A stretch of DNA of 64,000 nt. It comes from Perkinsela sp. CCAP 1560/9. Lineage: Eukaryota; Protista; Euglenozoa: Kinetoplastea. This document shows, piece by piece, positions 5,141 to 63,911 of the stretch. The translations under genes and the position numbers were made by a program. The first letter of the stretch is position 1. Each line of letters opens with the position of its first letter. The stretch lies in NCBI GenBank assembly GCA_965644495.1, contig CBFFSA010000004.1, positions 62,001-126,000 of the forward strand, read 5' to 3'. The notes under the pieces were generated by a model. The model was given only the letters and a program-made list of their open reading frames with translations, did no database searches and was not told the DNA's origin.

Positions 5141-5644
5141 TTAATGCCTTTCCTTCATCAATTCTTCAATGAATGCCCTGCCCTTCTGACGGCGGCGTTT
5201 TACCTCATCTGAAAGCTCCTGATATTGTTTGGCTGTAAGCAGCTTATATTTGGCAGATATTTTCTTTTGCACAGCTCGGAAACAAGCCCTCGGATTCTTG
5301 TGGTTTCCCTTCTCCGCTTTATATATCGCTGTCATGAACATTTTTACAAACAAAGAGTATGGAGTAATTCGCGCACAATTCACCCGAGCTTTAAGCGCTT
5401 TTTTTCGCTTCATATTCTCGGCAGCAGTCTTACTGAAGGACTGGACTTGAGAAGGAGATAATTTTTTAAAAGCGGCATGTGCTCCGGCGAGATTTGGGTA
5501 TCCCTTTTTACCTTTGCAAAACTTTGCTATAAATACACGCAGCGCACTTGTCGGGGCCGACTTCCCAGCCCACGGTTTCTTGATAACTTTAAGACGAAGC
5601 TTTGCGATGTTCTTGGCGAGCTTTGGAAATACACGAGCAAACAT
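5141..5644 (-). CDS. KAP-like basic tandem HMG-box mitochondrial DNA-binding protein, copy 1
   Basis: 167 aa from ATG 5644; short Arg-containing N-terminus; two degenerate HMG boxes (PTSALRVF..FKKLSP, PYSLFVK..YKLLT); Lys/Ala-rich; paralogous to five other copies. Confidence 0.8.
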   Translation of the reverse strand: MFARVFPKLAKNIAKLRLKVIKKPWAGKSAPTSALRVFIAKFCKGKKGYPNLAGAHAAFKKLSPSQVQSFSKTAAENMKRKKALKARVNCARITPYSLFVKMFMTAIYKAEKGNHKNPRACFRAVQKKISAKYKLLTAKQYQELSDEVKRRRQKGRAFIEELMKERH

Positions 5645-11396: not shown

Positions 11397-14089
11397 CACC
11401 CCCGTTCATGCCATATTGTTACAGTTTTCCTGGACGTATGAGGTGCGCTAAAGGGGAAATAATGTCTGTTTTGAAGAGATCTCGGCAGGGGCTCCCGAGG
11501 AAAAATATTGCAAGCAACTGAAATATCGCATTGTGGAATCTTGTGTCGACCTAAAAAGTTTATTTTGACTGAACTTGTGGAACCTTCTGTCGACCTAAAA
11601 AGTCAATTTTGACGGAAACTTTTGTTGGAGAAGACGGAAAGGATGAGTCAGAAGAGGAGCATATTTCTACAACTTCTACAATCTATTAAGATGAGACGGT
11701 CAGCGCCAGTACCACCTGAAAGATGACTGTTCCAGAGAAGGCCACAAGGAGCTCCCGACCATTCTTTCCCATGCTGAGTGTGTCCGGCATCAGTGAAATT
11801 TAAAAATTTGATTATAAAAATAAATAAATCTTTCTTAAATACGGATCTTACTATCATACAAAGGTAGCTACTATAATCTATCTATTTATCTCACGAAGGA
11901 AATACCAAAAGGGATTGTATCCTTTTCCCCTCCCACATAATGCCCATACACTGTGCTAATGTTAAAAAGTTAATAATTCACCCGATTTCCACCATTTGCT
12001 ACACACTCTTGCAGCCTTCTTTCAAAGGAGTCAACTACTGTTTGAGCCAGCTCACGAGCTTTTGGACTCCTCAAAAATTCTTCAGATACCTGGATAATCT
12101 CGGATTGCGTATTCGGACACTTTTTATTCTTCTCCTGTATTAAAAAAGACCAAAAATTTTCAAATAGGAGAAAGGTCAGGAGAATCCGCCGGCCATTTCG
12201 GGAGAATAGCTCCATCGGAACTTTTGTAGGTGCGCAAACTTTGAGTACCTATTTCATCCCTCGTCCCCCACCACATCATTGTCTTCTTCGCCGTATGTGG
12301 CGGTGCTCCGTCATCCTGAAAAATCATGTTAAGGTGAGATGCATGGTAAGGAATCCACTGTTTCATCAAGATTTCCTTTCGGTAGTAATAATTTCCTAAT
12401 TTGCGACCAGGAGGGGGGATCTCACGACTTTCACCGCGATACAAAGAGCGTGTGGCCTCGTGTGCGTAAAACTCTGTAAAGTTGTTACACCAATGCCAAA
12501 GGATATTACCTTGAATGTCTATGCCACCCCAGAGCATGACTTTAGTGGGATGATGTACCCGCGATCGATAAACAACATCTTCATCACTTTGCCAAGCTTT
12601 TCGAGTACCGTCCCCGGCATGTACATACGTTTCATCAGTTATAAGGAGTTTCTTTAAAAAGAGTCCTCCTGTGAGTTGTTGCTCTTTCAACAAAGCCTGA
12701 CAAAACAGCACCCGGGCTTCCTTCTTTGCAGGGGTCAGATTCAGAGTGTTTTTCTTTCTTTTGTACTTATACTTAAATAATTCGACTGCATGTCATTCGA
12801 TTTAATGTGAACATGTGGCACAGATCCGCCGGAGTGAAGTATCCCGTTAAGTACAAAACTCGTAGGGCCACGGTATGTGGTGTCTTCAAGCTGCCTTTCT
12901 GAGATAAAATCACCGGAAGCCCGCGTCTACGCCGAGTTGCAAGTTTAGCTGGTCGCCCTCGAGGCTTCTTCGCAGGAGTGATCTTGTCTACCTCACCAGT
13001 AGGACCCCTCGACCATTTGTTTTCTTAAATCACGCATGCTTCGAAGAATTCGCTGCTGCTCTTCAAAAAGTGTAAAATAAGAGTTTTTTAGGGTATCAAG
13101 TCTATGGGAATATTCAAGAACTTCGTGCCTAAGCGTCTGGCACCTTATTTTGCATTCGTCAGATTCGAGTACAGAAACGCGGACGTACTCTTTTGAACGA
13201 GCTTCTCGTTCCTCAGATGCATTTATTACCCTCCTGTGAATCCGCAGGCTCTTCTTTAAACGTTTTATCGCATTTCTCTGTGCCTGCACAGTTCGATTTA
13301 GCGAACTAATTGTTTTTTTAAGAGTGGCTAAAGGTGTGGTTGAGTTAGAAGCCTCATTTTCGGAAGGGGGTTCCAACGAATCACCGGTAATCTCAATTCG
13401 CTCCATCACATGTACGTCCGGGGGTTCGTTGCAGTCTCTGAGAGCGAGACAAACCTCGGGAGACGTCTTCTGAACTTCTCCACTTTGCTGAATCTGCGGT
13501 TCTGGGGGTTCTAAGGCGGGGGATGCTAAAGTGGATGCTAAGTGATGTGATATACTCTGAGTGATTTCCAATAGATCTGCTTGAAAAGTATGGTCCGCTA
13601 TGCATTTCGTTGAATGGTGCGTCTGTTGCGATTTTTGAAAAAAAAAGGGGAGAGTCATATCTTCGGAATCGCAACTTTCCGAACCGATACCTTCACCTAC
13701 AACGAAAGCGATATCTGAACCACTTTCGTGGTAGGCAGATTCGCATTCCTCAGAATCCCCCGAAGTCGAGCAAGAGGAATCATACTCCGTTTCAGAAGCT
13801 TCCGAAGGTTCCCAGTCGGTATCCGTTGCGGAAGACGCGGAAAGACTCTCTGCAGAGAGACTTGAGTCCGTTTGTGACATTGAAAAATAAGAACAAATCA
13901 CTGAAAGTAGATAATTTTCAGATAAAATTTTGACATAAAAAATACTCTGGTCAAGTACTGCAAAATGATGAATTCTGACTATTTTTCCGTTGTTATCCTA
14001 ACGTATCCGAGTAACTACGAAAAAAAACTAGCTAAAAAGCTCCTTCCATGCTCTCAAAACTTTTGTAACATTTTTTCTGAACGGGGGTG
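11397..14089 (-). mobile_element. IS630-Tc1-mariner-type transposon, DD49E, degenerate
   Basis: TA|CACCCCCGTTCA...TGAACGGGGGTG|TA termini, with TGTTACA conserved further inside; encloses transposase fragments. Confidence 0.88.
11970..13880 (-). pseudogene. Large Tc1-like transposase (acidic region, coiled coil, KPRGRP AT-hook, HTH, DDE), frameshifted and internally deleted
   Basis: ITDET / FQDDGAPPH / WPADSPDLSPI(E)NFW. One-base shifts near 13003 and 12162; about 75 codons missing near 12778 relative to the 57-kb homologue. Confidence 0.85.
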
Positions 14090-15097: not shown

Positions 15098-15204
15098 GGT
15101 CCTCTGTTAAACGCGGAGGAAGTTTTCAACGCGAACCGCGCAGCAGCAGTGACCTCTACAAGCACTTGTACTTGAAAACAACCATCGCTTTTAACGAAGC
15201 GACC
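15098..15204. repeat. Diverged copy of the ~95-bp foldback element
   Basis: GTTAAACGCGGAGGAAGTTTTCAAC ... TTGAAAACAACCATCGCTTTTAACGAAG; related to 54651-54745 and 59437-59531. Confidence 0.65.
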
Positions 15205-25688: not shown

Positions 25689-27254
25689 GGGTAATATGCA
25701 GTCAAACTTTACCCTAAATTTCATTTTTTTTTACTTTTTTTTGTCAAAAAAATATGTGTGATTAATTATTTACTTGATAGTTTTGAGTCATTTTCACCCA
25801 CTTTTAAGCTTTGTTTACGTCTTAAACCATTGAATGGACTGCTCAGGGTGTAGAACTTTTGCATGCTTGACGCTAGTTACGTCAATTTTGCAAATAACGT
25901 CAGAGAATGTTGTTTCCTGGCTAGTAAATCACTCTTTCGGGGCTTATACACAGTGTCTTCGCTGCAAAGAGAAACCAAGAAGCGATCAATGCTTCAAAAA
26001 ACTCGAAGACGGTTCGAAGTGCCGCCTAAAAATTCCGAAATTTGGCCCCTTTTTTCCTTTAAACTGTCGAATTGTTGATAAATTTCGATGTTGGCTGCTT
26101 CTAGCGCAAGGTAACCTGCCCTTGAACGCAGCTTTGCAAGCGCTCAGGTCTCTTCGTTCAGTTCTTACAGACCTAAGTGAAATTGAACGCATATTCAGCA
26201 TTCCCCGTTCCCCGCACATGCTCATGAAGTACGTTATGGTGGATGAGACATACATTGGGAAACGCCTGCACCATCGCGGGAGACAAGTCCGCAAACAAAA
26301 GTTCTGGTTTATGACGGCTACAGAGGTTGATCCAAACACCGGGAAATCATTGCAAACATACTGGGAGGCAACGGTTCGCTGAATGAGAGAGGTTTGCCAC
26401 AGGTTTGTCCGATCAGTCATAGAAAATCGAAATGCCATGGTAATTACTGATGAGTGGGCTGCATATCGTGGAATCGATGCCTTTTGCCGACATTACACTA
26501 TTTGCCACGCTGATGCATTCTCGCGAGAGCACTCCCCGCACGTCAACATTCATATCAACAACGCAGAGTCTGCCCATGCCAGTGTAAAGGGTTACTGCAA
26601 GCGTTTTTTTCACAAATGGGGCAGAAGTTTGGAAAGCTGTCAGGCACGAGCGCATTTAATTTGCACGGTCTTCTTCAAGGCGGAAGCTAAAAAGCGTTTT
26701 CAGAACCTTATGACTGTTATGGCGAGATACTCCTCTGACAATAGCGCGGTATACGGAGATCAGTCAAATGAAGAAGATGCGGAAGTTTCCAGTGACTCTA
26801 GTGAGGACCTTCAGGAAGATTATGAAAGCCCAACCACGCGACTAGGTCGAGCGCTCACTGAACATATAAGACTCAAACGCAGATATGGAAGGTATGAAAT
26901 GGGATTCCACAAGTATGTGATAAAAAGTGCCACTGACCGCCACTACACTATTTATGTTGGTCCTGGTGGTGCTCGACGCACTTGCCGTGACGGACGTCTG
27001 GGCAATCGATGTAAGCATATATATTTCATTTTGATGCGGGAACTTGGGGTGGATGAAAACCATTCAGTTCTATTAAAATCGGAATTTTCATCAGAAGACC
27101 TATCGAATTTGTTGTAGACGAGGCAGAAATTATCGGTAAATCGTCTTATTTATATGCAAATTTGCGTAAAAACAAAAAAGGAACACATATGTGATGGAAA
27201 TATACAGTTTTTAGAAAAAACAAATTTAGGGTACATTTTGACTGCAGTTGACCC
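25689..27254 (+). mobile_element. Merlin (IS1595/ISXO2-like) DNA transposon with complete ends
   Basis: 8-bp TSD GATAATCT (25681-25688 and 27255-27262); ~33-bp imperfect TIR GGGT(A/C)A..TGCAGTCAAA..TACCCTAAATTT. Confidence 0.93.
25834..27117 (+). pseudogene. Merlin transposase with C-terminal SWIM-like zinc finger; one in-frame TGA at 26380
   Basis: VDETYIGKR..RGR, VITDEWAAY, ICH..HINNAES; tail YTIYV..R(for C)TCRDG..CKHIYFIL. ORFs 25834-26382 and 26383-27117 are in the same frame. Confidence 0.88.
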
Positions 27255-32646: not shown

Positions 32647-33489
32647 TAGAGATAGAAAGACAGAGAATTAGACAAAAAACCTAGTATGAGATAAAATAAG
32701 ATAATTTATTAGCCTTAACCTTTTACCTGTAGATTTATTGAGGGAGATATGGTGAGCATCTAACTCGTCTTCTAAGATTAATTCCGCGAGCGTGGAATGG
32801 GCGTAAAGCGAGTAATCCGGCGAACGGTATATTATTTAAATCGCCATTTAATTAATATAGTGTTAAAATTTCTATCAAAAGAATATAGCGCTATCTAATA
32901 TTTAAATACCGTAGTAGTAGGTCCGCCATAGTGGGAAAATGAGGTGAATTTTGCCATTTAAATAATAAATTTATAATAATTAATAAATAATTTTAATTCA
33001 TGGCACAATTGTTTTTTAAATAAAAGTTCAATTTTTGGCTGGAAACATTTTTTTAATTTTTTGTCAATTTTTGAATTTCTCATGAGGTCTGATCTTGGCA
33101 ACCACTTTCTAGAGAAGAGTGCCACAGATTTTTGTACAAAAACTTAAATATCATGACAGGATTTGACGAAGGGAGAGCAAGAGGCTTTTCTTCAACACCC
33201 GGTCGTGGGATCATGCGAGATGATCTTGCATCTCACATCACACCCACAGCCCCTCACTTGAGGGGCTGCGGGTACTTCGACCGAGACCGCACCGAGACCG
33301 CGGTTCGTATTTTCGGTGGGGAGAGATAGAAAAACAGCCAAAAGTTTACATTTGTTTTTATTTTTAAGTGGAATTTCGAATTCGGTGTACGCTTCTAGCT
33401 ATATTTTCCTTTGTTTCTTTCTCTGAATCATTTTCATCCTTTTTACTAACAACGGCGCGTTTTTCTTTTCCCGTAAACTTTTCTCCTAA

Positions 33490-34140
33490 ATGTTTATGAA
33501 TATCGAGAGCAATGACGCATTGCAAGAACGATTGACTGCTCTTGAGCCTGAGACAAGTGCCGAACACAAACTCTTCGATGTCATCAAGGCTTCGACGATC
33601 CGGGTCTTTACGAAGAGGCCCGACGTTTTCTCCAAGCCACGTTTGGAGATAAGCAATGCGGAGCTCAGTAGTAAAGTGGATGAAATCGCAGGGCGCGTGT
33701 CACGCACGATGGACAACTTCCTACCTGTTGCACGCTCTGTGTGTGGCATTGACTTGACCTCGTGCATCGTGACTCGCGCCCTGTTCCACTTGGTTGACCG
33801 CCGGGGCCATCTGCATCTGAGCGTCCGCCCCCGGAGCGCGTACTTCCTTGGAGAGGCAGCTGCCGACCTTGAAGAGTACCTTCAAGAAGACCCCCTCTTT
33901 TCCCCCCATCGCCAAGGTGAAGTGGGCGACTTTGTGGACAGCGTGTGGCGCTCTGTTTCCGGGAAGCGGTCTCGCGTTTGCCAGCAGTGGCGTCAGCGCA
34001 AGCGGACCGCTTCTCGTCAAAATGAATCAAGCAGCGGGGCTGAAGTCTCGCCACCACCCCCAGAATACAATCCTCCCTCGTATACGGTGGCCAGCCCGAT
34101 CGCTACTTCGGATCGTTCGGTTCGTTTCCCGGCCTTATAG
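33490..34140 (+). CDS. Accessory ORF of the PHIS element, family not recognised
   Basis: 216 aa; full-length homologue at 41622-42296 inside related TIRs. Confidence 0.8.
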   Translation: MFMNIESNDALQERLTALEPETSAEHKLFDVIKASTIRVFTKRPDVFSKPRLEISNAELSSKVDEIAGRVSRTMDNFLPVARSVCGIDLTSCIVTRALFHLVDRRGHLHLSVRPRSAYFLGEAAADLEEYLQEDPLFSPHRQGEVGDFVDSVWRSVSGKRSRVCQQWRQRKRTASRQNESSSGAEVSPPPPEYNPPSYTVASPIATSDRSVRFPAL

Positions 34141-34430
34141 GTGTGCTCCACATGAGACGAGAAAGTACGAAGGTAAGACGGTAATAAGGTCTTACGAAGG
34201 TAAGACGGTAATAAGATGGCAAAGAAGGTAATAAGGCAAGTTAAGGTAAGGCAATTTCGTTCCCACTACTGTTCTGTTCGATTTTCCCTAATTACTAGCT
34301 CATTCCACTAATTGTTATTTCATTCCACTAATTACAAGTACATGCTAAAATATTTCCGCCCAATAATAATACAACCCTACTTATTTTGCTTTTAAATCGA
34401 AATTTCTTTCAATCGTTTCATTCTCTCTCT

Positions 34431-35375
34431 ATGTTTGGCATCTCGATAGCACAGGTGTGGGAGTTCTACAACGAGCTCCGACGTGTGCATGGATCCGATG
34501 TTACGGAGACTGATTACCGTCGTGTTCAGTCATCATTGTGCATCTGTTCTCTGAATTGCACATGGGAACAGTTGTACGATGTCCAAAGGGCGTGGCTCTC
34601 ACCGGACGCCCCGTTGATTTCAATTCGGACTCTCCGGGATGATTTTACTCGTGTGGCGCAGCTGTGCCGTTCACCCCTGCTCATGAACCCCGAGCTACGG
34701 TTTACCCAGGGAGTATCATGGTTATCTGACGTAACCTGCATGCTGGACGTCACGACGATCCCATGTCGTGCAAGAAAACCGAGAGAAACACCTGATGAAA
34801 CCACCCGAGATAGCACCTATTCGGGAAAGCACCGGCAGCACTGCTTCAAGGTGGAAGTTTGGCTAACACTGGCCGGAGTTCCATTCTTCTTTCGCGGACC
34901 AGTTGTTGGCAGCATGCATGATGCCAAAATTTATAAGAGTACTAGTGTGCATCGTACTCCGCTGTTCACTCACCACAAAGATGAAATGTTCTTGGCCGAT
35001 CTAGGGTACATAGGTTGTGCGCACTGCCTTGTACCCTATAAGAAAACTGGCCGTGGTCTCACCGATGATGAAAAACGTGTGAATGAAAGGATTTCACTGA
35101 TTCGCTCTCGAATTGAGCGACGTTTTGCACATTTCGACAAGTTTCGTTTTCTTCATGGTACTGATCATGATATACCATGGGTCAGAGACGCTTTTCAAAA
35201 TGTTTCTGTAGTTACGTATGGACTGCTGGCTACTCAGCCGCAGCATGATTTCGATTCGATTATAAATTTAAGTTTGAAATCTACAAGTGATGAAGGTGAG
35301 TGTTTATGTAGTAAAGGGTGCGGTGTAGTTGATGGTATCGAAAGCCGCAGAGAGTGGCTTAAGGAAAAAGCCTAA
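34431..35375 (+). CDS. Harbinger-type DDE transposase (DDE_Tnp_4-like)
   Basis: MLDVTTIP, YSGKH, GSMHDAKI, LADLGY, PYKK, NERISLIRSRIERRF. Confidence 0.92.
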   Translation: MFGISIAQVWEFYNELRRVHGSDVTETDYRRVQSSLCICSLNCTWEQLYDVQRAWLSPDAPLISIRTLRDDFTRVAQLCRSPLLMNPELRFTQGVSWLSDVTCMLDVTTIPCRARKPRETPDETTRDSTYSGKHRQHCFKVEVWLTLAGVPFFFRGPVVGSMHDAKIYKSTSVHRTPLFTHHKDEMFLADLGYIGCAHCLVPYKKTGRGLTDDEKRVNERISLIRSRIERRFAHFDKFRFLHGTDHDIPWVRDAFQNVSVVTYGLLATQPQHDFDSIINLSLKSTSDEGECLCSKGCGVVDGIESRREWLKEKA

Positions 35376-41382: not shown

Positions 41383-42543
41383 TGAGGGGCTGCGGGTGAC
41401 GTTAACCGCGGTCTCGCACGGTCTCGGCGCGGTCTCGCGCGGTCTCATATTTGTAAAATGGGCTAGAGGGTAAAAACACGACTTGCAGATTAGGTAAAAT
41501 GGTATTTGAGGTGAACACTAAACATCCGCTTTGACACACTTAAAACCATCACGAATAATAAGCAGAACTTAAAATATGATCTTCTCTCTTTCTCCTTCAA
41601 CTTTTCCTGAACGCGTCCTTTTTAGTTCAGCCGCGGGAACGAGACTACACGGTCTGATGTTCTTATTTCTTTCGCCGTATAATAGGACGGCGTGGGGACA
41701 TTCTTCTCCTGATCTGCAGCCGTGGGACAAGCTTCTGGGGTCTGAGATGCTGGCTTCTGAGATGCTTCATCCGCCCCTCGTTTGAGCCGGCGACGATGCC
41801 GGTAGGTCACGCAGGCACGAGAACGCCTCCCGGATACAGAGCGCCACAAACTATCCACGAAGTCTCCTACTTCGTTGTCCCGTCGAGGTGCATACATCGG
41901 GCTGAGTTCCAGGAAGCTTTGGAGATCCTGGGCAGCTTCTCCAACAAAGTAAACGGCGTGCGACGGAACATCCATAAGCAGATGCCCGCGGCGATCTACG
42001 ATGTGAAGAATGGCGCGCTCCAGTATCTGTGGCGTAATGTCTATGCCACAAACGGAACGGCCCCCGTGAAGGAAACTATCCATGGTGCGATGAATGCGTT
42101 CCAGGATTTCTTCGACTTTTGCTCCTAGCTCTTCTTCTGTGATAATCAGCTTCGGAGGGGTAAATACGTTAACACGTTTCGTGAAAACCCTCTTGGTTGA
42201 AGCTAAAACAACCTCATAGATCGCCTTTTCACTTTCAACCTCCGAGGGGTTCGCAATTCGAGCTTTTAGGTCAGCATTACTCTCAATTCCAGTCATTGAC
42301 AAGACAAAAAGATACGGAAAGCGAATTAACAAACTAAAGATGTTCAAAAATAGTCTTACTTCTATCTTCATCAAGGCCTACAATATGAGTACTCCATACA
42401 CATCGTATATACGAAGTGAAAATTCTTTTTTATTCAAATTATGCTCTACTCTCCATCCAAAAACTAGTATTTTTTTGTCTCTCCAAGCCAAGAGCAAACC
42501 GCGGTCTCGCGCGGTATCGTGTGCCACGACCCGCAGCCCCTCA
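41383..42543 (-). mobile_element. Non-autonomous PHIS element retaining only the accessory ORF
   Basis: TG|TGAGGGGCTGCGGGT ... ACCCGCAGCCCCTCA|TG; GAGACCGC repeats oriented as in 33259-35789. Confidence 0.88.
41622..42296 (-). CDS. Accessory ORF homologous to 33490-34140
   Basis: Shared blocks IESN..L..R, RVFTKR, RTMD.FL, RSVCGID, VDRRGHL, EVGDFVDS.WRSVSG.RSR.C. Confidence 0.8.
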   Translation of the reverse strand: MTGIESNADLKARIANPSEVESEKAIYEVVLASTKRVFTKRVNVFTPPKLIITEEELGAKVEEILERIHRTMDSFLHGGRSVCGIDITPQILERAILHIVDRRGHLLMDVPSHAVYFVGEAAQDLQSFLELSPMYAPRRDNEVGDFVDSLWRSVSGRRSRACVTYRHRRRLKRGADEASQKPASQTPEACPTAADQEKNVPTPSYYTAKEIRTSDRVVSFPRLN

Positions 42544-45641: not shown

Positions 45642-46804
45642 TAGAGATAGAAAGACAGGGAGCAAGCTAAATAACCCAGTATAGCGTAGAATACCATTAT
45701 CCGGAGGGATTGAACGAATAATACACACTTTTTTTTTGTGATTTCTTGAGTGACTTGTATGAAATGTTAACATTATTTGTTCGTTTTTCTAGAAACAAAT
45801 GACTAGCACTACCTTTTCTCTGGCTCTTGAATGAACTACACGGGTTGTCCCCATTTTGAATGCGCTTTGCTAATTAGCCTGAGATCATTAGATTCTGCCA
45901 CAGAAGAGGATTGCATATTACGGTTAAGAAACTATAAACTTGTTGTGCAGAAAGTTTCCTGTGAGCATAGGTATGAAAGAATGTCGTGTATTCTCAAGGG
46001 CGATAAGTTTCACTGCCCCGTACGCTCGTACCGCAAGTTAATGTCACAGAATGGCCCCTTCAAACATTTAAAGACCAAAGTTTCTGCCAAGCAAATTTTT
46101 ATTGGGATTGTATCATTCTCATATAGCATGCTCCGCACTGAAGTAGCAAAGGAAGAAGAAGTTTCTCAAAGAACCGCAGTCTTCCAACGCCGGACCATCG
46201 AAAAGGCACTGCCAGAAATTCGTCAGACCCGCCAGCGGGATGCCCAGAGCACAGTCTTCTTTATGCAAGTTGACGAAACATGGTTCTCAAAAGTTAACAG
46301 CTATCCAAACTGTTCAGACGCTGGTGGAGTGCTCTCGTGGCAACAAGCTGGAAGAGATTCATGTCCATAGTGGCAGTTAATAATTATTACAATAGAAATT
46401 ATTAATAATTTTTGTTTTAAAAAAATCCTAATTATCAATAATTATTAATAATTCTTCAATGGTACTTAAAAAGCTCAAATTTGAGGCAGTCTTTGGGAAA
46501 AAATGTATCTAAGGGGAGCAAATTTCACTTTCTTTCGGACTGACACCATGTTTGGCAGCTGACCTAAGGAGGGTATGGTGAAAGACGGGGAATTGTCCGA
46601 TTGTGTGCATCAAACAGGGGTCCTTAACACGTCCAAAACTTTATTGTAATCCTTTTATGGTACTGTCCCCCCCCACTTAAGCGCAACCAGGTTTTGGCCT
46701 AAAATTGCGCATAAGTAGCCGGGTCAAAAAAAGGGGTGAAATTTTTTTTTGCTTCAATCATGAGTTATATACGCGGGGTGCCCTTGGGGACTGCTTTTTA
46801 TATA

Positions 46805-54074: not shown

Positions 54075-54745
54075 TCTGCCCTCGATTATTGAAAAAACAG
54101 TGAACAAAAACAGTGAAAATATAAAGAGGAACACAGTAATATCATAGAAGAAAAAAATATTAAAGGGGGCCCCGGTGGTCCAAAACTGAAAAAACCAATT
54201 CAAAAAAATGGGGCGTCCATGGGGGGGTCGAGGGGGGGGGCATACGTCGCGAATTTTTTTTTCGAATTTTTTGCTTTTCAAAATCGAGCGCAGGGAAATG
54301 ATAGAGTAGGCCGCGGCGATAATTTTCCACCCCCCCCCTGGGGGTACCCCCCCCGGTACGCGGAGGAGGGGTCCGACATGGCCAAAAATTACAAAATTTT
54401 TGGGGTGACCCAAAAAAAAGAAAAAATATTATTTTTCCAAAATCGACTTCTAAACCGTATTTAGAGAGTTTTGGACCTCAGCTAACATTCTGCGACGTTT
54501 GGTTCGACAGATTCACCTCCTGCCCCTACTGGTAAGGCATCCAAAACGACCCAAATTCGGGTTACAAATTCGCAGTTTTCGCCGGAAAATCGAGCTTTTT
54601 TACCCGATAAAATAGATTATTCATCATCTTTTACCGATTGTTCTTTTTTAGGCTCTTCGTTAAACGCGGTGGTAGTTTTCAACGTGAAGCGCGCAGCATG
54701 AGTGACTTCTAAGTTGAAAACAACCACCGCGTTCAACGAAGAGCC
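54075..54745. repeat. Dispersed repeat ending in a 95-bp foldback (54651-54745); inverted relative at 59437-60345
   Basis: Shared blocks (CGATTATTGAAAAA.AGTGAACAAAAACAGTGAAAAT; GGTGGTCCAAAACTGAAAAAA; CCACCCCCC..GGGGT.ACCCCCC) and the same terminal palindrome. Confidence 0.75.
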
Positions 54746-55336
54746 TAAAAATTGTATTAACAATAATAATAATTAACGGAATATTTTTTTGGGAAGAAAT
54801 TATTCCGTTAATTATTATTCCAATGATTTTTACTAAATTCCTAACAAACTTTAAGCGCCAAGATACAACTTGTATATTCTCAAAAACTCTTCAGAACGTT
54901 GCGGGTTCGGTGCGGGTATTACAACAATCTTCTCAAAGCAAGCGAACTCTTCAGGCATTCCAGGAACTGAAGTAGAAAATTAGAGAGAGAACACGACTCC
55001 AACCACACCATTCTTTCGACACAAAAAGGCCCCTTGGGGTCCGAAAAATAATTTTTCACATTTTTTTGGTCAAAAATGGGTCATTTTCGCGGGTTCTACC
55101 GCTTCTGAAGTTTATTTTCGAAAAATAATTTTTACAAAAAAAATTTCGTGCGGTATGCTCCCCCTAGACCCCTCATGTTTTTCATTTTTTAATTTTTCAC
55201 AAATTATTCTATTGGCTTTTATACTTACCGAATATTTTATATGGCTTTTACATCTATTTATACTAACTATTCCGAAATTGTTTGTTTATAAAAAAAATGG
55301 TTTATTATACATGCACCTATGGATGAACTGATATCA

Positions 55337-57117: not shown

Positions 57118-58847
57118 CTAATATCGAATCTTGTGCCCATTGGCAGCAATACACACTTCTAGCCGTTTTTCGAACGTGCTGTGTAACTTCTTGGCCGTCA
57201 CCCTGCCTTCAAGAGAGAGAAAATAACTTTGCGACACTCTTTTTATCTCCTCAGAAGTCCGAGGAAAGGTCTGGTTCTTTGCGTGTCGAATTCTTGCCCA
57301 AAAGTTCTCTATAGAATTCAAATCCGGGGAGTCTGCAGGCCATCTGAAAGGATTCTTGTCCCCTGAGTAGGGCATGTACCGCAAACATTGTGCGCAATGT
57401 CCGGAAGAGACATGCGCGTTCCACCACAGCTGAGTCTTCTCACTCGTGTGTGGAGAAGCCCCGTCATCCATGTAAACGGCGGTGGAGTTCAACTCACAGT
57501 ATCGAGTCCACTCCGTATCGAGGATTTCGCGACGATAGTATAGACTCCCCAATTTCAACTGATCAGGAAGCGTTTCGCGCTTTTCTCCAGGGCGCAGGGG
57601 GCGGCTTAGCTCGTTCGCATAGAAAGTAGAGAAATTGTCGCACCAGTGAAAGATAAAGGTTCCCTCTTTATCGATACCTCCCCATATCATGACCTTAATG
57701 GGATGGAAATCTCGGTTGCGCGCAACTCGATCATAATGACTCTGCCAAGTAGACGTGGAAGAATCCCCTTCACAGATAAACGTTTCATCAGTAAAAACAA
57801 GGCTCTCAAAAAACTGTCCTTCCGTTCGTTCATTTTCCTGAAGCATCGCCTTACAAAAATTTACGCGGGCCTCCCGCTTCCGAGCACTGAGATGCAGTGT
57901 GCGTTTCTTTGACCCATATGAGTAATCATAGTAGTAATGCAACGCACGCATTCGATGACGTGAAACTTGGATGGATCCCTCGCTTAAGTTTACCATAGCC
58001 CTACGTAGGTAATTGAGGGATCGGTGTACCGGATGCTTTGCCATAACGCTGGCAAAAAGATCCTTGGCCTCTTCGGCGCTACTCCATCCCGATAGAGTTC
58101 GACGAACTTTCTCAACTTTTTGCACGCGCAGCGTAACAGTTATGGACTGGCCGTCAATTTTTCTAATCAAGCGACTACATGTTTGCTTGGGCAAAGTAAA
58201 CATGTAGCAAAGATCCGCTTGACAGAACAAACCTGTTTGATATAAACCTTTTAAAAGAAACAACCCAGACTCAGTTAAACTGCCAGGCTGTTTGAAAAGA
58301 ACAGTTAAGTGGCGTTTTCGTTGATTTTTCTTTTTCGTCGGACGACCCCTTTTCTTTCCTACGTTTGGCTCTTTTTTCTCAAGCAGTGACGCGCTACGGA
58401 CCTCAGTTAATAAATGAAGTGTTTTTTGCCTCTCGTTTGATAAATTAGTGAAACGTGTTTTCAAATCCTGACACTCTGCGCGAGCTTTGCATTATCCTGC
58501 TTTAAAATTTGCACTTTTAGTTCCATTTCTGTTCTCCGCGTTTCGGCCTCCATGAAGTCCTCCGCACTCTTAGCTCCACGCTTCTCAAGAGTCCTAACCT
58601 TTCTTTTGGTCTTGCAGAGTTTATTACGCAGCCTCTTGATAATTGCATCCTTGGCATTGATTTTTTTCTCCAAGGACTTCAATTGTTCGTCACTTGGATC
58701 TGAAATTAACTGTGTAACAGGTGCTTCCTTTTCAGGGGACAAAGCGTCAAGGCTGGTGTCGTCATCAGCTCCGCGCGATACATCGGAGTGCAGACCCTTT
58801 ATTTCCCCTACCGCTTCTAGAAGCTTTGCGTCTAACCCAGGCGACAA
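57118..58847 (-). pseudogene. Large Tc1-like DD51E transposase (coiled coil, KKRGRP AT-hook, HTH, DDE); single frameshift near 58463
   Basis: VFTDET / YMDDGASPH / WPADSPDLNSIENFW; collinear with 11970-13880 across the frameshift. Confidence 0.88.
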
Positions 58848-58931
58848 TGGTCTATTTCCTTGGAATCGGCCTGGCGAAAAAGAAGGAACTGGCGAGCGGG
58901 CTGAACAGTGTACCCCGCGGCGGTACCAGTC

Positions 58932-59175
58932 TTATACTGCCGCCTGTACAATCTGGGCATTACCTTTCTGGATGGCCACCCCTATGGCCATCAGAAGGTG
59001 GGACATGCATCCGTTCTTGTGGATGTGTGGGCCCGGGCCACCTTGGTTAGGAAGTTCAAGGTCTCTGGGCCCGGGATCCCGTACGTGGTGAAGGCCAAGG
59101 GGTAAAATTCCATCCCTCGGGCGGTCGCCATCTCATCGTGTGAGCGCCGCTTGTTGGCCTCGGCCATCCTCAGGG
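58932..59175 (-). mobile_element. 3' end (REL endonuclease C-terminus) of a CRE/SLACS-like retrotransposon
   Basis: MAEANKRRSH..EFYPLAFTTYGIPGPETLNFL..(frameshift)..GVAIQKGNAQIV. Confidence 0.78.
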
Positions 59176-59436
59176 TTTCTTTTAAATTTCTATCAGATGC
59201 CTCAAAAATACGACCAGCTGCCCTTGGAAACTACACCCATACGCAGTAGAGTGTCTCGCCCTAGGTGGAATTTTGGAAAAGTGTGCAAACTTCGTTCAAT
59301 CTTGTGGGTTTAAAAATAATAAACCTCTATTTTTTGTGGAACTAAATTTTTTGCTCCCGCACCACAAAAACATAAATTAACGTAACTTTAATAAAAAAAC
59401 TACGTACGAGCGCCAAGATCCGTCATAACTTTTTTA

Positions 59437-60345
59437 TTCTCTTCGTTAAACGCGGTGGTTGTTTTCAACTTAGAAGTCACTCACGCTGCGCGCTTCGCGT
59501 TGAAAACTACCACCGCGTTTAACGAAGAGACTAAAAAAGAAAATTTAGCCTGGAAAGCTGAAGAAAACGGAAAGATTATAGCCAAAAATAGCCGATTTTC
59601 GGGTAAAAAAGGGGTCATTTTTGCGTATTTTTGCTCTCAGAGCACTAAATCCGATATTTGCGTGTGAGAAATCACTCTTAGGCGTGAATGAAAGCCTACT
59701 GAACGCATTGGGTAGAGAATGCGACTCAAACCACACCATTCTTTGGCATAAAAAGACTCCTTGAGGTCCGAAAATTACATTTTCACCTTTTTTAGTCAAA
59801 AAAGGGTCTTTTTGAGGGGCGCACCACGGCTCGAAGAATGGATATCTTGCGAAAACAACGGTGTGGACAGCTAGTATAGGGCACAAACTATAAAAATACA
59901 ATAGGGCAAAGGATTTTGGAAAAATATTTTTTTTGCCATTTTTTCCGCCAAGTTGAAATTTAAAAAAAAAAAATCCGAAAAAATCCGAACTTGGCGGACC
60001 CGTCCTGCGGATACGCGGGGGGGTCACCCCCGGGTAGGGGGGTGGAAAATGCGCGCCAAGACCCCGGTTACCCCTCTGCGGTTTTTGTTCGAAAAATATT
60101 TTTTACGAAAAAAATTGCTCGACCATGACCCCCCCTGGACTCCCCATTTTTTTCAATTTTTTTTTCAGTTTTGGACCACCGGACCCCCTTTTATATTTTT
60201 TTCTTCTATTATAAATTCTTTTTTTTATGATAAATTCTTTTATTACTGTGTTCCTCTTTATACACTGTATACACTGTATTTCTTTATACACTGTATTTTC
60301 ACTGTTTTTGTTCACTTTTTTTCAATAATCGAAGGTACAGGGGTA
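59437..60345. repeat. Inverted relative of 54075-54745 with a 95-bp foldback at 59437-59531
   Basis: CTCTTCGTTAAACGCGGTGGTTGTTTTCAAC ... GTTGAAAACTACCACCGCGTTTAACGAAGAG. Confidence 0.75.
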
Positions 60346-60611
60346 GTTGTACCATTTCACCTGTACATGCAGGCGTGTTTCCTTTTTTCTGTGTTTGTGC
60401 GGGTGAATTAAATTTATATCTACGATATGTTTTGGTACAATTTGAGAGTAAGATTGGATTATTCATACTTGTTTGTTATTTATACTTGTTTGTTTATTCA
60501 TATATGTTTTCATGTATATGTTTCCAGGGAGCCCCTCGGCGTGAATTTCGATTTTGAATTTAATTTTTTTTTTGCCTGAATTCTGATTTTCCGCTTTCTT
60601 TCACATTTTTC

Positions 60612-61606
60612 ATGACAAACCAACAAGATCCCCTTAACGGAAACCCGGATGTCATGCTCCGTAGTTTTATTGCTCTTTTGGAGGCGACGACTTACCGAGA
60701 GCATAGGCGTGGCCCACTTGGGGACGCCCCAGCCACAGTTCAAGACCCCAGCCTTCTCAATCCTGCGCTCTGGCGTGACGTACCTTTACGTCCAGTTTGT
60801 ACTCAGTGTCCTGCGTTCAACTGCGTGAAGCGTTGGAGTAGTGTCGCAGATATCCCCCTTGGTGCGGACGCCGAGGGTTGGATGCGGAATCACGGTTTTC
60901 TTTATCCCCCCTCTAGTCCGAAGCACGGTGTTGCGCGTATGGTGGACGTTCCTGGAAAGTCCCATATGCAAATCTGCAACCACTGAGAGTCTGGCTCTCG
61001 AAATGCCTGCAGAATCAAGAAAGGCAAATTCGAATCATACATTTCCATGCGCAGCCATCTCACTCCAAGTATTCTCTTACTCGTCTGGGACGACATCGCG
61101 AATCAGATGTGTACCATCCAGATTTGTCATAATAGAGGGGTGGGTCGCAGAACTGTGCAGGAGGTTCTGCACTCCGCGGCGGATGCAGCCCTTGCTCAAG
61201 AGCAGATGGAGCAATACGAATTTTCCCGAATTCAGGTTGATGAAACCTGTATAGGGAAACGGAAATATCAGCGGGGGAGGCGACAGCGCAAACGGGGGTG
61301 GTGGTTTGCGACAGTGACCGAGATCCGAGGTCAAGAAATGGGAAGAACCCATCGGAAGCTAGTGAAACGAAGAGATACGGAAACTCTTCACAACTTCATT
61401 CTTCCGCACTTGACAAGTGCGAGGGCTGTCGTGGTTAGCGACTGTTGGGGGATGTACACCACTTTGGGTGACTTTTGTCGCCACCACGCTGTGAATCACA
61501 GCGTGGAGTTTGTGAACTCCTAAGGGTACCACACGAACACCGCTGAAGGGTCACATCGTATCATAAAGGACTGGGTGCGGAAACAGCACTACAATTTGAA
61601 GAAATA
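60612..61606 (+). pseudogene. Merlin transposase, frameshifted and truncated
   Basis: IQVDETCIGKRKYQRGR, VVSDCWGMY, AVNHSVEFVNS*GYHTNTAEG. Confidence 0.88.
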
Positions 61607-61759
61607 GCACTACAATTGAAGAATAACTAACTTGAAGACACTTACATTCTTAGCCCTGAAATCAAAAAAAAGTCAAAAAATGAAAATGTATGGATAAATA
61701 GCTCTCTAGCCTTTGGACCAAGCAGGGGTTTCTATAGCAGGGGTTTCTATAGGTGGGTC

Positions 61760-62305
61760 GGTGGAGCGTCACATCAAGAAGCACTTAGGGCAGCTTCACA
61801 GATCGGAACAGGTTGCCAACACTCTATTTGTTGGGGCGCAAGCTTCGCCGTCTGTGGTTACTATTCCGCACGTTGGAGTTAAACTGTGCAAATCTCTTCG
61901 GATTCGTGGTCGGCGCCCTTAATGGCGGCAATCCAACCGCGGCCGATCAACGATCCCCAACAGAGTCCCCATCCGACTTCGCCCTCAGATAGTCAACAAG
62001 AGGCGTCGGTATGGGGATTAGGAAGCAGACCTCGTGGAAGGGCACTCTCACTCAGGTTACATTTTGACCTTGTGTGAGCGGAAGATCCGATTCCCCGTTC
62101 TGCGTATTCTACGATCGAAGCATGCCGAAGAAGTGACAAATCAAATCATCAAGGGATTAAGAAAGAACATAATTTTTACTATCAGTTGTGACGATGAAAC
62201 GGAAGTTTCAAAGCGCGAAAGAGCGAATGAAAATTGGGATGTAAATCATTTTTCAGTGCTCCGTATCACTCGTGGAAAAAGGGGGCTGTGGAAAATTCAA
62301 AAGTC
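61760..62305 (+). pseudogene. IS30-family transposase remnant
   Basis: HRSEQVANTL (cf. WSPEQI); IPNRVPIRLRPQIVNKRRRYGD*EADLVEG..GYILTLCERKIRF; TISCDDETE; after a frameshift FSAPYHSWKKGAVENS. Confidence 0.85.
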
Positions 62306-62723
62306 AACAAGGTAAAGAAGAGGTACAGATGAGCTACGAAAGCCTCTCGAAGTGACGTGAGATTTTGAAGAAAGGCTTGGGGTAAGCAGAGCGTTTTTTG
62401 ACGTAAGTTTACTTCGACTCCTAGAATAGTACTGCACCAAGAAGGCTAAGTGGTAACGACAAGGTCCGCACCTACACTGGCTGCGTTTGGTAAAAACATT
62501 GAAAATCTCGCTGCAATGTAACCTGATCTTTCGAAAATAAGTGTCCGTTGTCAATGAACGTCAGTAATCCGGCGTTACCACTGTATAAAACATTCGTTGC
62601 TGCGTGGGCAATTTTGACGGATGCATGTCAGCCCATTTGTAATGTGGTCCAACCGTGGGTGCGTCCTTTGATCCTGACTGTGAAATATGATTGCAATATC
62701 ATCATACCCCATTTATAATTTCA

Positions 62724-62766
62724 AGACCGCACGGAGAGCGCGGTTAACGCCACCCGTATCCCCTCA
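62724..62766. mobile_element. Solo end of the TGAGGGG PHIS family
   Basis: GCGCGGTTAACGCCACCCGTATCCCCTCA is close to the reverse complement of 41383-41415. Confidence 0.65.
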
Positions 62767-63407
62767 TTTTATTTGTTAAATGGTATGATTAGATTAAATT
62801 ATATGATTAACCAAAGATGAACGGGCAAGGATGAGACCAATTATTCTATGCGGGTTCAATGATTGAAACCAAAACATTGTTTTGGTAAATCAATGGGAAA
62901 ATAAAACGATGATTCACTCTTCTACACTTTGATGTTATTCGAAAAATAGAAAAAAAGCACCAATTTAATAATTTTACCAGATACTAGTAAGCTTTTACTA
63001 GTAAGTCAGAGAACTACATTGTTGGAAAAATAGAGTACGATTGTATTAATACTTTTTTTTCATTCATTATTCATGTAAATCTAGTGGCAGTTCATCGGTT
63101 CCCTATCACATGCGCATGTACATTGTATATCTAGATTTCTGCAATTGTTTTCGAAAAAAGCATAGGTACCGTATAAAAAACTAAAAATAATTGGAAAAAT
63201 TAATTGCAGCTTACTCTTGAGCATACTTAGACTTCCAATGTATTTACTTTAGAAAATCCACCTCCTCAATCTTGCACGATTATAAAAACCAAAAACAAAA
63301 AACGGATCCACAATTCATTTGTTCTCCAGCCTAATACGTTTGTATAATATCAGATGCATAGCCATTTCTAGAACAATTGGTTCTTATCGTCAAACAAATC
63401 GTAAAAA

Positions 63408-63911
63408 TTATTTCTTCTTCTCTACTAGCTTTTCAATGAATGCCTTGCCCTTCTTACGGACCTGTGCTGCCTCAACTGAAAGTGCTTTGCGTTGAGCGGC
63501 TGACAACTTCTGGTATTTGGCAGATACTTTCTTTGCCGCCGCGCGGAAACAAGCTTTAGGATTCTTGTGGTTTCCCTTCTCCGCCTTGTATATCGCTGGC
63601 ATGTTACGTTTCAGGAACAAGCTATAAGGAAGGTAGCGTGCGCTTTTCACTTGTGATACGAGCGCTTTCTTCTGTTTCAGATTCTCGGCAGCAATCTTAT
63701 TCAAGGACTGGACTTGAGCTGGAGATAATTTTTTAAAAGCGGCATTTGCTCCAGCGAGATCTGGGGCTCCCTTTTTACCTTTGAGAAGCTTTGAGATAAA
63801 TACATGCCGCGCACTTGTCGGGGCTGATTTTCCAGCCCATGGCTTATTGATAACTTTACGACGAAGCTTTTCGATGTTCTTGGTGAGATTTGGAAGCGCA
63901 CGAGAAAACAT
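63408..63911 (-). CDS. KAP-like tandem HMG-box protein, copy 6
   Basis: 167 aa paralogue. Confidence 0.82.
   Translation of the reverse strand: MFSRALPNLTKNIEKLRRKVINKPWAGKSAPTSARHVFISKLLKGKKGAPDLAGANAAFKKLSPAQVQSLNKIAAENLKQKKALVSQVKSARYLPYSLFLKRNMPAIYKAEKGNHKNPKACFRAAAKKVSAKYQKLSAAQRKALSVEAAQVRKKGKAFIEKLVEKKK

Follow-up and report, generated by a model that had tools for sequence, protein, structure and literature searches.

An inactivated fragment of an IS30 transposase, a gene of bacterial type, is present in a eukaryotic genome and is physically joined to eukaryotic genes. We consider it likely that this IS30 lineage was acquired once from bacteria and was then amplified in a kinetoplastid-like genome; this is probably a new case of a prokaryotic transposon invading a eukaryote, of the kind seen with IS481EU. 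Coordinates refer to the window, that is, the whole 64,000-nucleotide stretch of DNA that was analysed.

Translation and model searches located a dead IS30 transposase fragment at 61754 to about 62296 on the plus strand, interrupted by two stops and one frameshift. Every motif that the preliminary description had read through these lesions was found in the order given there: SEQVA (61803), IPNRVP (61953), EADLV (62022), LTLCERK (62064) and TISCDD (62178) in one frame, followed by SAPYHSW (62255) and GAVEN (62282) in a second. The span proposed at that time, 61760..62305, was right as to location, but the edges are better placed at 61754 and 62295–62301, where loose contig ends lie. With X written at the stops, 61722–62234 matched the NF033563 (transpos_IS30) model with E=7e-20 and 71.8 bits, and 62231–62329 matched the adjoining part of this model with E=9e-4 and 19 bits; taken separately, both pieces score below the cut-off of 80. 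Neither piece was matched in a Pfam search. As a control for chance similarity, P0013, an unrelated IS30 from JGI, scored 82.8 bits on the window, versus a maximum of 26.6 bits in 50 codon-shuffled windows. The remnant and its immediate surroundings comprise the following features:

60987..61619, plus strand: Merlin (IS1595-like) transposase remnant, the left neighbour, multicopy (PF12762, E=1.6e-12; depth ~900 vs ~31 in X1)
61721..61750, no strand: tandem duplication of 15 bp, close to the breakpoint on its left side, with no second copy in the window
61754..62296, plus strand: IS30-family transposase remnant, subfamily A (NF033563, tblastn, depth step, loose ends at 61754 and 62295–62301)
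61865..61867, plus strand: 21 nt missing here (13+1+7) when compared with a sister copy (X2 record 10; a 7-residue gap in alignment A1)
61920..61922, plus strand: in-frame TAA stop, a sense codon in sister copies
62019..62021, plus strand: in-frame TAG stop where the GDWEADL motif has its conserved Trp, a sense codon in sister copies
62028..62030, plus strand: first catalytic Asp (D175 of P0010)
62190..62192, plus strand: second catalytic Asp (P0010 residue D230), its context decayed, with CDD for YDN
62228..62234, plus strand: approximate frameshift, gapless in short-read contigs
62291..62293, plus strand: catalytic Glu (P0010 residue E264), read in the frame after the shift
62724..62766, plus strand: 43-nt motif shared with the flank of a PHIS-like element, recurring at 41383–41424 and 33284–33305
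63408..63911, minus strand: host HMG-box-like (KAP-like) gene, 1.11 kb from the remnant (Pfam E=0.023; Atlas 0.87)

Compared by tblastn with P0003, P0008 and P0010, the remnant corresponds to roughly residues 78–265 of a transposase of 315–317 residues; the left end, the HTH_38 domain, the last ~50 codons and the right end are gone. Codons for the whole D-D-E triad are still present, and the three residues (D175, D230 and E264 in P0010 numbering) are ~100% conserved across 258 references. At place 62020, within the second stop, sister copies have a sense codon on 11 contigs, amounting to 1417/1417 of the depth in X1. The frameshift is not an assembly error, because short-read contigs carry it without a gap (X2 62056–62553 and X1 62107–63483). 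Judged by its lesions, the window copy is incapable of activity now. No inverted repeat bracketing the remnant was found among the 25 longest of the 126 pairs in the window. The GC3 of the remnant, 0.51, falls inside the host range of 0.46–0.87 and is uninformative on origin.

The surrounding DNA is that of a eukaryotic host. Each of the 14 host ORFs that could be recognised is free of breaks and lies on the minus strand; they encode a Pol I-like exonuclease, RPS20, three LRR-like proteins, six HMG/KAP-like proteins, an RPA-like protein, a mitochondrial carrier and an RsmB-like protein. Pfam gives weak backing to the LRR and KAP labels, which are in part our assumption. RPS20 has 6zj3 as its best PDB match, an entry tied to the Euglena ribosome (PMC7672448). 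RPS20 and one LRR protein have exact matches in MMETSP/EukProt. The Pol I-like exonuclease is similar to phage exonucleases, a likeness that is expected because the mitochondrial polymerases of kinetoplastids and diplonemids are phage-derived (PMC7883662). We take the host to be probably a kinetoplastid, with a Perkinsela-like lineage as a possible candidate. All three transposon remnants (IS30, Merlin, PHIS) lie opposite to the host genes, on the plus strand, an orientation also described for decayed Merlin copies, which are often antisense to the gene cluster (PMC8101967).

The neighbours named in the preliminary description were a Merlin remnant, a PHIS end and a KAP gene 1.1 kb away. The Merlin remnant on the left was confirmed by its PF12762 match. 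The PHIS end on the right is borne out in part, by the 43-nt motif, whose copy at 33284–33305 sits just upstream of a PHIS-like (DDE_Tnp_4) element; 62298–62720 gave no Pfam or NCBIfam match, and tblastn with the PHIS transposase of the window found nothing to the right of the remnant. For the gene, the distance stands and the identity is less firm, the product being only weakly HMG-box-like; we take the name KAP as an assumption. In X5, possibly an RNA run, a contig covers 62902–63483 and leaves the remnant uncovered, and the run is uninformative on expression of the remnant. A ~20-bp tandem duplication at 61590–61632 also lies in the Merlin/IS30 junction zone.

Short-read contigs join the remnant to both of its flanks. 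Overlapping X2 contigs match 61568–62001, 61990–62077, 62056–62553 and 62554–63233 with 0 differences, and an X1 contig of 1378 nt (62107–63483; 8 differences, 0 gaps) runs from IS30 through to the KAP-like gene. The left junction is crossed also by contigs X1 61568–61918 and X3 61655–61885. The join rests on these overlapping contigs, no single one of which spans the whole 6 kb, and X1–X4 represent three DNA samples of one study, the best of which may be the window's own source.

Summed contig depth in X1 is 25–34 on the flanks; of the 21 bins that cover 61748–62314, 20 rise to 125–1261. Across the 19 inner bins the median reaches 11.9x (X1), 8.1x (X2) and 1.6x (X4) flank depth, with X3, kept outside the median count, near 1x in most bins; these values are sums over contigs of all organisms and do not measure copy number. 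The depth step is confined to the remnant, and both flanks are at single-copy level. Forty-five X1 contigs divide by identity into 7 at 99% or above, 10 at 95–99%, 19 at 90–95% and 9 below 90%, a spread that reflects many diverged copies and not one collapsed young IS. Sister copies are up to ~15% diverged and have sense codons at both stop positions, and translation by eye shows transposase sequence in their loose ends past both breakpoints. Some are broken in other ways: a stop follows the catalytic Glu in one, the region of the second Asp is gone from another and a third skips 158 nt. The copy with the Asp-region deletion (62069–62163) is found at 1.0–1.9x host depth in X1, X3 and X4, over host depths of ~3 to ~36, and the internal-deletion form at 2.5–3.1x host depth in X1 and X2. 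On a 975-nt contig (X3 record 19), an IS30 piece of ~70–95 nt (61881–61951) lies between unrelated DNA; its depth relative to the host, 8–15x for X3 and ~2x for X4, suggests that at least one copy may belong to a different genome or be embedded in a repeat of high copy number. Within this one study, the depth step, the diverged contigs and the depth that tracks the host make it very likely that several copies reside in the same genome. The suggestion of a multicopy element, as opposed to a single decayed copy, is thus upheld by the depth step, by the diverged and broken sister copies and by relatives on other contigs.

Relatives were sought among 5.8 billion proteins and 1.8 billion representatives, with proteins of 94–173 residues covered by the representative search and cluster look-ups only. 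Close relatives were found in ENA only, on 11 other contigs of 10–82 kb, some of which may be one locus in two assemblies. They form three subfamilies: A, with the window copy, P0003 and P0006+P0288; B, with P0004, P0007, P0008 and P0240; and C, with P0005, P0009+P0011, P0010, P0012 and P0287. The subfamilies are mutually 58–64% identical, and the nearest outside relatives reach 44–52%. Full ORFs occur on 3 of the 12 contigs, the window's included (P0004, P0008 and P0010, on contigs of 22, 74 and 82 kb); all three belong to B or C and none to subfamily A, the window's own, and the broken ENA ORFs could be long-read errors. Full-length relatives score 245–251 bits on NF033563 and P0003 scores 163, against the cut-off of 80, and HTH_38 and rve domains were found in P0003, P0008 and P0010. 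Membership of IS481 or IS3 was considered and rejected: P0004, P0008 and P0010 had no IS3 match, and the IS481 model gave 58–61 bits (cut-off 224). A PDB sequence search returned weak integrase-core matches only (E>=0.002), and an AlphaFold model of P0010 from 6 sequences was poor (pLDDT 41.6).

Phylogenetic analysis placed A, B and C together as one clade inside bacterial IS30, with SH-aLRT support of 100 in trees of both 87 and 169 rows and with bootstrap 100 / SH-aLRT 99 in a careful tree of 41 rows. The trees were midpoint-rooted and contained IS30-type rows only, the 87-row tree being a quick version; 60 of the 116 listed outside matches were taken, with subsets elsewhere, and P0006, P0009, P0287 and P0288, which are short or out of frame, were left out. 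This nesting within bacterial IS30 supports a horizontal origin, as had been proposed from the window alone. The sister of the clade is a group of metagenomic IS30, whose named members in the 87-row tree are copies from Akkermansiaceae MAGs. A second ENA-only clade consists of the truncated IS30 transposases P0141, P0224 and P0283, on contigs of 122,440, 5,581 and 13,961 nt; it did not group with the A+B+C clade, although such a grouping is not rejected (p-AU 0.38), and it may extend the proposed eukaryotic IS30 lineage.

The distribution of substitutions carries a record of past function. B and C differ from each other at 12/96 conserved and 86/139 variable columns (p=9e-15); the corresponding counts are 10/69 and 54/112 between A and C, and 10/69 and 66/111 between A and B. 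Within subfamilies, the pooled differences fall on 25/481 conserved and 40/705 variable columns (p=0.80), and the window copy and P0003 differ at 14/50 conserved and 17/61 variable columns. Differences between subfamilies spare conserved sites and those within subfamilies do not, indicating that the transposase was functional while the lineage diversified and that copies decayed after insertion. This pattern is silent on which cell hosted the diversification.

An active IS30 could instead belong to an accompanying bacterium, as food or symbiont, with the intact B and C genes being bacterial and the eukaryote having received, once or repeatedly, dead fragments that never transposed. The intact copies are known as ORFs only, cultures of such protists carry bacteria (in one case 5,595 scaffolds were discarded as bacterial; PMC5601477), and the closest named outside relatives are bacterial MAGs at 46–56% identity. 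Decay in itself is no proof of eukaryotic residence, since MAG G002 has 15 IS30 matches, most of them with stops, and the 975-nt contig bearing a fragment fails to track host depth. We nevertheless regard a bacterial home as unlikely. The window copy has no bacterial flanking DNA, dead copies follow host depth over a tenfold range, and a full ORF survives on just 3 of the 12 contigs. The clade was recovered on long ENA contigs only: scans of JGI, GTDB and IMG/VR yielded no locus of it, the best identities being 49% among 31 loci, 46–56% among 5 and 38% among 15, and in the plasmid searches the best listed matches were 40–41% by protein, with no DNA match. The nearest named plasmid relative among the matches listed is IS4351-like, at 40%. 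Repeated transfers from one narrow clade are also less economical than a single transfer followed by amplification. Residence in the host is favoured because dead copies occur at host-like depth, because the family is monophyletic with the host-joined copy and because the clade is absent from other collections. We infer that the intact B and C genes are on host chromosomes.

Multiplication could also have been passive, one transferred copy being carried along by segmental duplication or inside other transposons without any IS30 transposase activity. The remnant is indeed nested among Merlin, Tc1-like and PHIS-like elements and repeats of very high copy number. Passive spread is nonetheless improbable, in that depth is raised over IS30 alone between single-copy flanks, sister copies extend into IS30 sequence or differ in their breakpoints, and the divergence between subfamilies is marked by selection on transposase function. 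Still less credit can be given to a family that is eukaryotic but has most of its copies, the intact ones included, in a second eukaryote such as an amoeba host of the window's organism, which may be an endosymbiont; the window copy would then be a transfer between partners. The X3 contig at 8–15x host depth would agree with this, and endosymbiotic kinetoplastids have been sequenced along with their host (PMC5601477), but most variant sets follow the depth of the window's flanks. An assembly chimera with a bacterial contaminant, which the preliminary description had named as the outcome that would refute it, can practically be dismissed: the gene is of bacterial type and the 6 kb are not covered by any one contig, but short-read contigs with 0–8 differences link IS30 to Merlin on one side and to the KAP-like gene on the other, both junctions lie under overlapping 0-difference X2 contigs, with X1 and X3 crossing the left and X1 the right, and the stops and the frameshift are present in those same contigs.

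For the preferred reading, a single acquisition followed by amplification, we propose a sequence of steps. One bacterial IS30 likely entered a kinetoplastid-like ancestor and then multiplied by its own transposition. An intact copy would consist of a transposase with HTH and DDE domains between short inverted repeats; IS30 terminal inverted repeats measure ~20–30 bp and the target duplication 2–3 bp, and rough 24-nt repeats were found in the bacterial relatives L001, L003 and L032. Expression would proceed through host polycistronic transcription and trans-splicing, and the transposase would reach the nucleus through its basic patch. Transposition would follow the IS30 copy-out/paste-in route, in which one end attacks the other, the resulting circle junction integrates and the second strand is supplied by host repair or replication. 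IS30 elements use copy-out/paste-in, and their N-terminal domain binds subterminal sites of the inverted repeats (PMC7780238). The window copy, by this account inert, would persist antisense to the host gene cluster amid other dead DNA transposons.

The left end of the element can be read in part from P0006, whose first 34 residues are this end out of frame: 27/30 positions fit the start of P0003, compared with at most 11 at other offsets. The codon table requires at least 10/15 pyrimidines at positions −20 to −6 upstream of the ATG in P0006; four bacterial relatives, counted by eye, have 5–6/15. Such a pyrimidine-rich leader, deduced from the protein of one copy, would fit a trans-splicing tract and is a weak hint. 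More tentatively, we put forward a eukaryotic IS30 group derived from one entry into an early-branching kinetoplastid, with at least three autonomous subfamilies, intact copies, a pyrimidine-rich leader and nuclear copy-out/paste-in circles.

The family shares with bacterial IS30 (NF033563) a single ORF of 315–317 residues, HTH_38 and rve domains, the D175/D230/E264 triad and a full-length model match, and its nearest bacterial relatives are metagenomic copies and copies from Verrucomicrobiota (Akkermansiaceae) MAGs. It differs from bacterial IS30 in being joined to eukaryotic genes, in forming a private clade with 44–52% identity to its nearest outsiders and in having mostly diverged or broken copies. 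Among eukaryotic elements, IS481EU of parabasalids and IS3EU/GingerRoot (PMC10045372) are likewise bacterial integrase-like DDE IS families that are multicopy in protists; they belong to other IS families, and IS481EU has defined termini and target duplications, whereas the element described here is known from transposase sequence. The eukaryotic IS607-like elements (PMC3673617) also represent a recent-looking, patchy transfer from prokaryotes, with 40–50% full-length protein similarity, but IS607 is not a DDE element as IS30 is. PMC3673617 also cites a bdelloid rotifer that carries one IS5-like copy, likewise an IS transfer to a eukaryote. Merlin, reported from Perkinsela sp. and Bodo saltans (PMC8101967), resembles the present case as a kinetoplastid DNA transposon whose decayed copies are often antisense; it is an IS1595-related superfamily, old and spread across eukaryotes, whereas the element here nests within bacterial IS30.

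A literature search by title and start of abstract, with subscription journals, Repbase, ISfinder and supplements outside its scope, found no report of a eukaryotic IS30, which agrees with the earlier statement that no such superfamily is established. According to the accessible part of a 2012 survey of 24 IS families in 431 eukaryote genomes, IS607 alone was retained and IS30 was not (PMC3673617). The IS families linked to eukaryotic groups in the accessible part of PMC10045372 are IS630, IS1380, IS1595, ISAzo13, IS256, IS5/ISL2, IS481 and IS3, and do not include IS30. The accessible text of PMC2836005 mentions IS30 as integrase-like only, and Merlin is the only DNA transposon given for kinetoplastids in the corresponding parts of PMC8101967 and PMC12278014. 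Few bacterial IS families are known to cross into eukaryotes and spread there, and IS30 would join them. If the preferred reading is true, a clade ~50% identical to bacterial IS30 and with intact ORFs is a young case of an IS turning into a eukaryotic transposon. It opens the questions of how a bacterial transposase is expressed under trans-splicing and whether copy-out/paste-in works with eukaryotic repair and replication.

Several other features of the window were observed. DNA transposases of Tc1/mariner-like (DDE_3), PHIS-like (DDE_Tnp_4) and Merlin type occur together in this kinetoplastid-like genome, at 12163–12792, 25834–27114, 33490–35372, 45831–46367, 57121–58491 and 60987–61619. A non-coding repeat at 59400–60400 has extreme depth (95,785 vs ~31 in X1; 7,393 vs 2 in X2) and contains an inverted repeat of 41 bp at 95% identity (59429–59469/59499–59539), with more copies at 54641–54751 and 15106–15202; it is MITE-like, with perhaps thousands of copies. 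Six paralogous HMG-box-like (KAP-like) genes lie on the minus strand at 5141, 25150, 32143, 45138, 55337 and 63408; the paralogues are 78–88% identical to the gene at 63408 and have ~40x flank depth. An unclassified coiled-coil ORF region at 58464–59200, at ~30x flank depth, adjoins a Tc1-like element. Finally, 33490–34137 and 41625–42371 hold related ORFs with no Pfam match; the first is directly upstream of the PHIS-like transposase, and ENA contigs hold 5 cluster members of the second.
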